Part shown: one piece after another, positions 55,361-58,300 of the stretch
Position numbering within the stretch: position 1 is the stretch's first letter
Layout of the letters: each line of letters starts with the position of its first letter
Origin: Candidatus Latescibacterota bacterium
Lineage (GTDB): Bacteria; Latescibacterota; UBA2968; UBA8231
NCBI GenBank assembly: GCA_965208105.1
Contig: OZ242318.1
Span: 1,440,001-1,504,000 of the forward strand
DNA: 64,000 nt
Direction of reading: 5' to 3'
Notes under the pieces: generated by a model
What the model saw: the letters and a program-made list of their open reading frames with translations, nothing else
What the model was told of the DNA's origin: nothing
Database searches by the model: none
Made by a program: the position numbers and the translations under genes

Positions 55361-58300
55361 ATGAGTCTTTCTTTGAAGGCGCCGTGGCACAAGATTTCGT
55401 GGGATGCATTCGTGCAGAAGGGATTGCCCGACCTGTTGGCGGAGCGGATGCCGCTGGCGGGATACCGGGTGGTGTCGAAGGACGAGTACGTCTGTGAATT
55501 GCGCCTTGGGATCCAGGGAGGTCAGGAGGTCTTCTACGCGAACATTCCCCAGCCCGACGAATGGGGCCGGTTCAAGGTGGACGGCTTTTTCCGAATGGTT
55601 GTTCCGGCGCCGACGGAGGTGGATCTCGAGCGTGCCGAGATCCGCTGTGTGGGCGAGCAATTGCTCGATTATATCGCCCGGCGGCTGGAAAACATGCCGG
55701 TTATGCCGGGAGGTGCTGTCGCAACATTGATGCCGCTGGGGGATTGGATCCACGCATTTTTTACAGACGAACCCACCTCCCAGTATTTGCAGGCGACCAA
55801 CCTGCACGATATGTACGTCCACCTGCGCCGGCTGAACATGATCCCCATTTTCGGCGAGGCCACGGAGGGGGTGGAAAATTTCTATCATCCATCGCACCAC
55901 GGACGGGTCTGTCCTTACTGCACTCCGGAAGGACCGAATCTCGGGCGGATCCTGGAGGTGGCTCAGGGGGCGGCCATCCGCGAAGGCAAGCTGGTGATCG
56001 AGGACGACGCGCCTCGAAAGCGGCTGGGCATCGGTGCTTCGATGGTTCCCTTCCTGGAACACAACGACAGCAACCGGGTTCTGATGGGGGTGAATATGAT
56101 GCGCCAGTGGATTGGCGCGCCTGGACCCGACATGCCGCGCGACGAGCAGGGCGCCTGGCACGACTATCACGTCCGATACGACGGCAGGGAAGCGGAATCG
56201 GAACCCGCGATGGTGCAAACGGGGCTCGAACCGGACGACCCGCATTTCTGGACGGGATACAACCTGCTGACCGCCTTCATGGCCTGGAACGGGGACGCAC
56301 TCGAAGACGCCCTCGTGATGAGCGCATCCGCGGCCGGGCGCATGACGCTGCCCGATCCCGTCGAGCCGGGCGACAAACTGAGCAATCGACACGGCTTCAA
56401 GGGAGTGGTGTCGCGGATTGTGCGGGACGAAGAGATGCCCAGATTGTCCGACGGCACCCCGGTTGAACTCATCGTCAGCGTGTGCGGTCTGCCGTCGCGG
56501 CTGAACATCGGCCAGCTGCGGGAAGCCGTCGCCGGGCGCATTGCGAAGGCCGAGGGAAAGCCGCTTGTCGTTCCCGTGCTCGAGGCGCCGAAGGACGACG
56601 AGATTCGCGCCCGCCTGAAGGCCCGCGGGCTCGCGCAGGATGGAATGGATTCTTTGACCTTGAATGGTGAAACGCTGCCGCGCCGCACCACGGTGGGGTG
56701 GGTCTACTGGGGGCGCACCTTTCATCTGGCCGCGGACAAGATTCACGCGGCGGTAACGCCGGACCAACCCTGCCAGGAGTTGGATGAGGCTGATTTTCTG
56801 GCGCTGCAGGAGGCGGGTGCATTCGGGGTCGTGGGCGACCTGTTCAACACCTGCGCCAGGGACCGGAGCGATTCCCATACCCTGGCCGGCCGCGTCGCCT
56901 CGGGACCCGTTGCCGCTGCAGCCCCCTCCCCCCAGTTCGACGATCTTGTGAACGAGTTGTCGAAAGCCGGGGTGGCCGTCGAGCTGGGTGAACACGGGGC
57001 GCGGTTTTCGCTGAGACGGGGTGGAGAGTTGGACCTTGCCCTGCCGGTCCCGCACCCGTGGCTGCCGGGACATTCGCTGATCCACGTGGGCGGGAATGAC
57101 GTGCCCGGCGCACTGCGGCAGTCGAACAGGCGCCTGAGCGAGATGATCGCCAGTGATGCGCCGGAGGTGCTGGTGCGGCGCGCCCTTGAAACCCTGTCCG
57201 GGCGCGTTCGCTCATATTGCCGCTTGCCGCGATTGAGATTTCGGGCGCGCACCTTGTTCAGCGGGCGTTCGGTGGCCGTACCCGCCCCGGAATTGAGATA
57301 CGATCAGGTCGGTGTGCCCGAAAAGATGGCGTGGGCCTTGTTCGGACCGTTCGCCGCGCGTACCGTGGGCGGCGAAGCAGTGGACCGGAGGTCGAAAGTG
57401 GCCAGGGAAGCACTGGATGCAGCCATGGCCGATCTTTGGGCCGTGGTCCTGCGCAAACCCACGGTTTCGCCGACGGCATTCGTGGCCTGCCAGCCGCTGC
57501 GCGTCGAGGGAAACGCCATTCGCGTTTCCGTGTCGAATTGCCATATGCTGGATATGGACTTTGACGGTGACCAGGTGGCGGTCTTCGTGCCGGTTACCGA
57601 GGCCGGCCAGCGCTCGGCCGCGGATCGCCTGTCGGCAGTCGCGCACCTTGCCCGGGACCCGGGCCTGATCGCCCGCGAAAAAATTCACCCAATGCACGAC
57701 GCCATGTTCGGTCTGGCGTACACCAGCATGACGGACGAAGGTCTGGGGCAGATTGGAGCGATCGTCGGGGAAGAGATCGAGCGCGAGGGATTGTTCGTCG
57801 GCAAGAATCAGGTGATGGCCTGGCTGGCGAACGCGATGGCAGGCGATGGGGCTGAAGCCGCATTGAATATGGCGGCGCAACTGCGGGAAAGGGGATTTGA
57901 AGCCGCGCGTAAAACCGGCGCTTCGATGAGCGCGTTCATCGGCTCGTCCCTCCATTGCCCCGATCCTCCCAAGGGCGATGGCCCGGACGTCTGGCGCGAC
58001 TATCCCGACGAGGTATCGGCGATGTTGGCGCAGTTTCGCGGGTTTGACGACGACGACCTCGGGATTCCCGCCCTCCTGGCCCAGTGCGGCGCGCGGGGAA
58101 ACTGGCAGCAGATCAGGCTATACGTGGCACCTCAGGGCGTAGCCCGGAACGCCCTGGGCGGATTCACGCCGCTGAAGCACGGATTTAGAGAAGGGCTCAC
58201 CCCGGAGGAGCTTTTTGCGCGGTCGTTTGCCGCGCGCTGGGGTCTGGCCAACGCCCTGGCCGAGATGATGGCGATCCAGAGCGACCTGGAAACCCGGGGC

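Follow-up and report, generated by a model that had tools for sequence, protein, structure and literature searches.

Why should a bacterium that possesses an ordinary RNA polymerase (RNAP) also carry a much reduced, single-chain one, and does the sigma factor encoded directly in front of this extra enzyme guide it to promoters? The question is raised by a two-gene operon in a stretch of 64,000 nucleotides (nt) from a Candidatus Latescibacterota bacterium (assembly GCA_965208105.1, contig OZ242318.1, positions 1,440,001 to 1,504,000; hereafter the window, whose numbering is used below). Its first gene encodes a sigma factor of the extracytoplasmic function (ECF) type, its second a fusion of the RNAP subunits β and β′, here called the mini polymerase. 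In the normal core enzyme, the β′ clamp helices are the main docking site of sigma region 2. A preliminary description of the window had recognised these helices in the mini polymerase, and had proposed that the protein is either the private partner of the sigma factor or a core mimic that sequesters it. The analysis confirms the observation and supports the interpretation in part: the helices, the ECF neighbour and the pairing of the two genes all hold, while the signs of selection for sigma binding and of an interaction are weak. The reading favoured here, at roughly an even chance, is that the sigma factor and the single-chain polymerase form a holoenzyme of their own.

The open reading frame (ORF) of the mini polymerase has 1029 codons (55358–58447, plus strand), and the likely product, counted from the ATG at 55361, has 1028 amino acids (aa). 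Within this one chain, Pfam recognises Rpb2_3 (residues 142–206), Rpb2_6 (137.5 bits) and Rpb1_2 (52.5 bits). Searches of the PDB with phmmer match the protein to β subunits (best E-value 1.4e-47) and its C-terminal 529 residues to β′ subunits (best E-value 7.5e-26). It is on account of these domains and matches that the protein can be called a β::β′ fusion; judged from its sequence, it is a bacterial β joined to a bacterial β′ and shortened to about 40% of the length of both normal subunits. The scores against the NCBIfam models for rpoB, rpoC and full-length β/β′ fusions lie far under the respective cut-offs. Elsewhere in the host genome there are an ordinary rpoB (open frame of 1272 aa) and an ordinary rpoC (1386 aa), and the mini polymerase is therefore an additional enzyme.

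AlphaFold2 models the whole protein as a compact monomer with a mean predicted local distance difference test score (pLDDT) of 91.5 and a predicted template modelling score of 0.90. Residues 1–545 superpose on β/Rpb2 chains (Z 28–29, root-mean-square deviation (rmsd) 2.4–2.8 over about 490–518 residues). Residues 546–1028, modelled alone (pLDDT 83.7), resemble the largest subunits with Z values of 15–22; for M. tuberculosis β′ (6edt_D), for instance, Z is 18.9 for 459 aligned residues, with an rmsd of 8.0. Two further structural matches of this half, 7s00_d (Z 14.7) and 7ogp_A (Z 12.5), rank under the cellular largest subunits. The top matches of the whole model in Foldseek are exclusively β chains.

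Conservation within the family was read from alignments of 27 and 88 homologues, and a profile of the 88 sequences was used in hhalign. On the β side, the motifs GDK..RHG.KG, NMMRQ and ED are all present, and are invariant or near-invariant in both alignments; in the first of them, G337, D338, R343, G345 and K347 are invariant among the 88 sequences. The β fork region is also retained in the alignment to β. On the β′ side, residues 733–737 match the β′ motif NADFDGD, with all three Asp residues of the Mg-binding triad kept in 86 of 88 homologues, and F633 and S634 of the switch-2 region are invariant in the same set. Together with the bridge helix, these alignments indicate purifying selection on the entire active site across the family. 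The two homologues with a substituted triad, P0052 (DFAGD) and P0075 (NFDGD), may be inactive variants or the product of sequencing errors; in the former case, they would offer natural tests of the core-mimic idea. Residues 127–207 (55739–55981) align to rpoB 453–536, which we take to be the part of β that holds the rifampicin pocket, and show several differences from the host copy.

Around this catalytic centre, much has been lost. In the phmmer alignment to host rpoB, residue 322 of the mini polymerase corresponds to rpoB 778 and residue 335 to rpoB 1038, i.e. 12 residues replace about 259, including the flap; the first 452 residues of rpoB are mostly gone, with 126 in their place. The rudder is absent as well, as hhalign leaves a gap of 24 columns in the mini protein against the rpoC segment that links the clamp helices to switch 2. 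Between the β-like C-terminus and the clamp-helix hairpin there is just the short segment LALPVPHPW, whose alignment to rpoC 118–136 is not significant (score −4.1). Neither the sequence ahead of the hairpin nor the conserved columns of the 88-member family contain a Zn-finger Cys cluster; the neighbouring Zn finger is gone, as originally noted, and the strand with the invariant H565, P566 and W567 is left on the N-terminal side of the hairpin. Finally, there is no trigger loop, since the chain ends about 50 residues after the bridge helix and the family profile finds no match in rpoC 780–1386 (hhalign probability 0.04). The tail (residues 985–1028) might have been expected to match the conserved β′ C-terminal motif, but the same comparison gave nothing for it; the structural alignment of the C-terminal half to 6edt_D extends to residue 1260 of that chain.

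One accessory element that has remained is the clamp-helix hairpin. The peptide originally singled out, placed at 57100–57230, comprises residues 585–619 (57113–57217), and its assignment to the β′ clamp helices is correct. Aligned with host rpoC, the family profile gives a single hhalign alignment (probability 99.9%, E-value 2.3e-32, 391 columns) that covers residues 583–972 and rpoC 287–795 and starts exactly at the hairpin, with residue 583 opposite rpoC 289. The hairpin shares 11 of its 37 residues with host β′, including N-x-R-L in the first helix and A-P-E-V at the tip, and the AlphaFold2 model shows the two helices (583–597 and 602–619) with a pLDDT of at least 88 in each block of 10 residues. 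In a phmmer search of the PDB, the stretch 580–613 taken alone is not significant (34 residues against Thermus β′, 2.0–2.4 bits, independent E-value about 5e2–7e2), and lies collinear with the significant β′ match.

The gene in front of the mini polymerase encodes an ECF sigma factor, as had been recognised. Pfam finds Sigma70_r2 (55.9 bits) and Sigma70_r4_2 (53.9 bits), and the NCBIfam model TIGR02937 for ECF sigma factors scores 112.7 bits (cut-off 42.9). Translation starts at a TTG, and the TGA stop codon (55343–55345) lies 15 nt ahead of the ATG of the polymerase gene. Among 38 orthologues, the core-binding stretch of region 2 is kept: D47, Q50 and W57 are invariant, and E51, F53, L54 and R55 are conserved in at least 90%. 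In PADLOC, the sigma factor has weak matches of the helix-turn-helix type only. The linker between regions 2 and 4 (55087–55096) is unusual in its own right; it has an invariant P112 and W114 within the consensus P-x-W-M-I-D, preceded by an acidic run, unlike the ECF linkers described as non-conserved in PMC6372665. This segment might serve as a contact that replaces the missing flap.

The two genes belong together far beyond this genome. A family search in collections with one genome per species returned 213 related stretches, and the best 80 of these served for all comparisons of loci. They come from Latescibacterota, Poribacteria, Chloroflexota, Planctomycetota, Armatimonadota, Gemmatimonadota, Hydrogenedentota and a Moanabacter; the family spans at least seven phyla, with many uncultured lineages from sponges and soil among them. 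In 78 of the 80 loci, an orthologous sigma factor (44–81% identity) is encoded upstream on the same strand, at a distance of up to 363 nt in 67 loci and of 1.3–2.4 kb in 11, which bears out the conserved pairing. The pairwise identities of sigma factors and polymerases are correlated, with r = 0.97 for 2775 pairs and 0.63 for the 2387 distant ones. None of the other ORFs that flank the pair in the window is common across loci.

Of the two remaining loci, one is without DNA upstream of the polymerase gene and the other (L064) has no sigma gene. Upstream of the polymerase, the latter (L064:4107-5158) has two ORFs, one of 143 aa that by eye resembles an IS200/REP-type transposase and one of 187 aa on the opposite strand; its sigma gene may have been displaced. 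Two of the 11 loci with longer distances were read, both from Latescibacterota (L007:4162-5958 and L016:4002-5762). They contain a gene of about 590 aa between sigma and polymerase, without a second promoter match; by eye, its product resembles an ABC-type exporter with fused membrane and ATPase domains. The sigma match is split into two overlapping pieces in L029:5433-5968, a possible frameshift, and the sigma gene in L059:1642-2202 has an in-frame stop; these defects could be assembly errors or decay.

Within its phylum the family is patchy, with members in 54 of 151 genomes, in 19 of the 52 of high quality and in 20 of 20 in one genus. Of the genomes G068 and G147, one has two full-length copies and the other a C-terminal remnant (profile positions 738–1039, frame of 373 aa). 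The family-specific N-terminal 130 residues match 164 representatives, which are either about 1000–1100 aa long or short pieces, the latter taken as fragments at contig ends. All members that carry a name (7 names among 120 matches listed) are called ‘hypothetical protein’.

There is no full-length member among 50,697 phage records, 72,556 plasmid records or seven relatives from IMG/VR, and an origin from mobile elements was rejected on these grounds; RNAP homologues in bacterial selfish elements were reportedly discussed by Iyer and Aravind in 2012. The best viral match, from IMG/VR (L094:2416-9821), was also rejected as a member of the family: it is an ordinary multisubunit set of phage type, with a split β′ (536 and 600 aa) and a β (1024 aa), followed by a GTP cyclohydrolase I. 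A role as a defence system was not supported, with PADLOC assigning the polymerase to 0 families. In the literature covered, which extended to the main text of an ECF re-classification (PMC7826278) but not to its genomic-context supplements, no description of the family, or of any fused mini polymerase linked to a sigma factor, was found; that main text does not contain rpoB, rpoC, Rpb or ‘RNA polymerase subunit’.

The pair is also accompanied by a conserved promoter. The site to which the preliminary description had drawn attention is indeed an ECF-type promoter (54709–54734): the pattern TGAAC-N15-GGTGTC, with up to one mismatch per half, is found in 75 of the 78 regions upstream of the sigma gene. 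No site resembling a sigma-70-type promoter is found in 54400–58800. A position weight matrix (PWM) places the operon promoter first in the 4.85-Mb genome (23.0 bits). Matches of at least 18 bits number six in the genome and two in a reversed-sequence control; the further ones, considered as targets, lie mostly inside long open frames and were treated as due to chance, as was one intergenic site before an open frame that by eye is accA-like. Of the 80 loci, 74 have a single PWM match each, although here only the absence of second sites is informative, as the matrix was derived from the same loci. A strict 14-base pattern has exactly one match in each of five Poribacteria genomes out of five. 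Genome-wide, TGAAC-N15-GG[TC]GTC has 11 matches at its spacing of 15, compared with 10, 11 and 9 at spacings of 14, 17 and 18. The promoter thus looks unique in each genome examined, and the operon is probably autoregulated by its ECF sigma factor.

Some further observations concern the surroundings of this promoter. In Latescibacterota loci L006–L026 (e.g. L014 and L026), a run of 7–9 T residues stands directly ahead of TGAAC, and farther upstream several of these loci have short tandem repeats, such as CTGACCA units (L014) or CACTTC-like ones (L026). Nine sites in the genome (G000:C1, e.g. 756812, 1133611, 2041436, 2507571, 2749079, 3367746 and 3919401 on the plus strand, and 302734 and 392904 on the minus strand) share an identical 34-nt sequence, a weak PWM match of 13.5 bits that probably belongs to a repeated element. 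In a sponge metatranscriptome library (X20), contigs of 231–378 nt with 90–99% identity cover parts of both genes of the operon and also their neighbours; they may stem from DNA carry-over and are not taken as a sign of transcription or of its start site. The features of the operon are collected in Table 1.

Table 1. Features of the sigma–mini polymerase operon in window coordinates; residue numbers refer to the mini polymerase.
Feature	Position (nt)	Residues	Strand	Basis or remark
−35-like element TGAAC	54709–54713		+	Present in the conserved promoter upstream of sigma
−10-like element GGTGTC	54729–54734		+	End lies 20 nt upstream of the sigma start codon TTG
ECF-type sigma factor gene	54755–55345		+	196 aa, with just regions 2 and 4; Pfam, NCBIfam
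Ribosome-binding site AGGAGG of the polymerase gene	55349–55354		+	3 nt past the sigma stop codon
Fused β::β′ mini RNA polymerase gene	55361–58447	1–1028	+	1028 aa from ATG; Pfam, PDB matches, model
Junction at the missing β flap	56324–56365	322–335	+	phmmer against host rpoB
β-type catalytic motif (GDK..RHG.KG)	56369–56404	337–348	+	Aligned to β by phmmer
HPW, remnant of the β′ strand following the Zn finger	57053–57061	565–567	+	Invariant
Clamp-helix hairpin	57107–57217	583–619	+	Helix 583–597, turn 598–601 (SDAP), helix 602–619
Connector at the rudder position	57218–57238	620–626	+	hhalign gap
FSGRSV, switch-2 region	57257–57274	633–638	+	Aligned to rpoC YSGRSV
DFDGDQ, β′ Mg-binding Asp triad	57557–57574	733–738	+	phmmer, hhalign against rpoC
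Bridge helix	58202–58297	948–979	+	Long helix in the model; aligned to the β′ bridge-helix region

An intact active site, a conserved gene pair and a conserved promoter are thus in place. How they work together is a matter of interpretation. According to the favoured reading, region 2 of the co-transcribed ECF sigma factor would dock on the hairpin of residues 583–619 as it does on a normal core, and the two gene products would form a two-polypeptide holoenzyme that initiates at promoters without α, ω, flap, Zn finger, rudder or trigger loop. TGAAC-N15-GGTGTC would be the single ECF-type promoter that drives the operon, and the first transcripts would probably be made by the host core with the ECF sigma factor. 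A private holoenzyme would account for the fact that the sigma factor, and nothing but the sigma factor, travels with the enzyme. The hairpin itself appears to have been kept although almost all other accessory elements were shed, which counts for docking. Moreover, it has a conserved core of the form LxxANxRL...AP..L, in which N589 is found in 86 and P601 in all 88 of 88 homologues, and L585, R591 and L604 in at least 90%. The core-binding residues that the sigma factor retains in region 2 count for docking as well.

A structure prediction of the complex, which had been put forward as a check in the preliminary description, gave a pass that is graded weak: the sigma factor and residues 225–1028 score 0.57, compared with 0.00 for the best of three controls. 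Of 80 solved complexes, 58 passed the mark used, as did 2 of 110 mismatched pairs; scores at the mark but not above 0.60 were obtained for 7 of the 80 solved complexes and for both of the passing mismatches. The runs agreed in at least 37% of contacts, with a partner pLDDT of at least 66. Covariation, computed as normalised mutual information with average-product correction, placed 5 of the top 100 couplings in the hairpin where 4.2 were expected, from 75 pairs with an effective number of 32, i.e. an underpowered set.

This picture is complicated by several observations that weigh against sigma docking. The computed interaction is a weak pass at best, and may reflect likeness instead of binding, given that sigma–core complexes have already been solved. 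Conservation is lower in the hairpin (0.56, the 23rd percentile of 37-residue windows) than across the protein (0.63), and in distant pairs the identity is 38% for the hairpin against 47% for the protein. The earlier claim that sigma binding is under selection is not borne out by these values; among homologues, the helices have a fixed core motif and an overall conservation under the protein mean. In the hhalign alignment to rpoC, three residues of host β′ (R, E and A) are replaced by S588, A608 and R615; these positions are presumably those of E. coli β′ R275, E295 and A302, needed for binding of sigma-70, and a private sigma factor could have co-varied with them. In normal RNAP, the clamp-helix hairpin also binds factors of the NusG type, and its retention need not, therefore, mean sigma binding. 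The flap and the Zn finger, which place sigma region 4, are absent, and the standard −35 element and spacing fit the host core with the sigma factor at least as well. Lastly, as the promoter is single in each genome, the visible regulon of the sigma factor is its own operon, and no other target is seen.

The same observations lend themselves to a third option, which the original pair of alternatives had left out: the ECF sigma factor and the host core switch on the operon, and the mini polymerase is its sigma-independent output, an enzyme that might, for example, extend primers or start at ends, nicks or single-stranded templates. The hairpin would then have been kept for a minimal clamp or for another factor, in line with its conservation not exceeding that of the rest of the protein. 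The canonical ECF geometry of the −35 and −10 elements, although the mini enzyme itself has no flap, and the single promoter per genome, as for an ECF sigma factor with its own operon as sole regulon, are both accommodated well. There is also a precedent in YonO, a polymerase that by itself forms elongation complexes in vitro, with its need for an initiation factor left open in PMC5467207. Such an output enzyme is nevertheless unlikely, if still a serious contender. The sole gene tied to the polymerase in 78 of 80 loci is the sigma gene, the weakly rated complex prediction points towards an interaction, and the fixed polar residues N589 and R591 are less well explained by a purely structural role. 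To our knowledge, moreover, there is no known way in which a core-type enzyme without an initiation factor chooses its start site.

ECF operons usually carry an anti-sigma gene directly downstream of the sigma gene, and this is the position of the mini polymerase gene. As a core mimic, the protein would titrate the sigma factor off the host core by means of its hairpin and so exert negative feedback. The flanks contain no other conserved gene of anti-sigma type, and the retained hairpin and the weak computed binding pass would fit this role too. What makes it distinctly improbable as the main role is that catalysis appears to be under selection: the Asp triad, the β motifs and the bridge helix are kept across the family, and on this basis a partner enzyme is favoured over a sequestering mimic, the second of the two possibilities originally raised. 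A two-barrel enzyme of 1028 aa far exceeds the needs of a decoy; Pfam at E-values up to 1 finds no anti-sigma domain but just Rpb2_6, Rpb1_2 and Rpb2_3; and no regulon past the operon is seen that such a switch could serve. As feedback, a mimic role could exist alongside either of the other two readings. That the gene is a non-functional leftover, a decaying rpoB–rpoC duplicate with a chance resemblance in the hairpin, as its patchy occurrence and its ‘hypothetical’ relatives might suggest, can practically be dismissed in view of intact frames of about 1000–1100 aa in at least seven phyla, a confident model, and the conservation of motifs, partner and promoter alike.

To return to the private holoenzyme, a stronger version of it would be a self-contained, orthogonal system, in which the single-chain RNAP reads promoters through its private ECF sigma factor without the host enzyme. 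This is a tentative proposal, with somewhat less than an even chance. The mini polymerase lacks the flap, the Zn finger, the lobes and the trigger loop, which are the targets of many of the phage proteins and antibiotics directed against RNAP; if the proposal is true, a small programme of transcription could continue during a block of the host enzyme. Among cellular relatives of the multisubunit RNAPs, a single-chain enzyme that depends on sigma would then be without precedent, and no smaller sigma-using enzyme would be known. If the sigma factor docks, 1028 plus 196 residues would make up the smallest known promoter-specific enzyme of this lineage. Flap, Zn finger, rudder, trigger loop, α and ω would then be dispensable for sigma-dependent initiation, and a tractable two-protein system would be at hand for structural work and orthogonal gene circuits. 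Moreover, with 213 stretches, at least seven phyla and no named member called anything but ‘hypothetical protein’, a whole class of transcription enzymes may sit unannotated.

Comparison with known systems helps to define what kind of enzyme this is. Like the bacterial core, it has two barrels, the Asp triad, the bridge helix, switch 2, the clamp helices and clear homology to β and β′; unlike it, it consists of one chain of 1028 aa instead of two with about 2650 aa, and lacks the canonical flap, Zn finger, rudder and trigger loop. With the ECF holoenzymes of M. tuberculosis sigma-L and sigma-H, as presented in PMC6372665, it shares a two-domain ECF sigma factor and an ECF-type promoter. The order of its parts, β first and then β′, is that of the full-length β/β′ fusions (NF011417 and NF007172), and both models match; however, these have 2839 and 2890 positions with cut-offs of 4632 and 5372 bits, and the mini polymerase scores 178.7 and 168.2 bits, respectively. 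Relative to such fusions, it is a deletion derivative of about one third of their length that exists beside normal rpoB and rpoC.

Reduced enzymes are also known from mobile elements. The non-virion RNAPs of the jumbo phages AR9 and phiKZ are likewise reduced and β/β′-like, and work without α or ω; they are the enzymes behind the structural matches 7s00_d and 7ogp_A of the C-terminal half. In contrast to the mini polymerase, they are split into several polypeptides, are encoded by phages and use phage-specific promoter factors. Similar in build, by description, is Orf6 of the yeast killer plasmid pGKl2. According to PMC2919709, this is an Rpb2::Rpb1 fusion of 982 aa from which about half of the coding sequence has been deleted; in both proteins the second-largest and largest subunits are fused and shortened to a similar size, but Orf6 is of a eukaryotic plasmid lineage and has no sigma factor, whereas the mini polymerase is bacterial and has one. 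YonO of the Bacillus subtilis SPbeta prophage is, according to PMC5467207, a DNA-dependent RNAP of about 100 kDa, with a single chain, two barrels and no trigger loop, a description that fits the mini polymerase equally well. The same paper gives YonO almost no sequence likeness to β/β′ beyond the catalytic residues, and no known initiation factor. In contrast to this prophage-borne enzyme, the mini polymerase is readily alignable to β and β′, has a dedicated sigma factor, and has no full-length relative in the phage, plasmid and IMG/VR collections; as plain phmmer searches suffice to match it to both subunits, it belongs to a lineage other than that of YonO. Taken together, these comparisons describe what appears to be a chromosomal, sigma-linked, single-chain RNAP, reduced in size and derived from the bacterial core enzyme.

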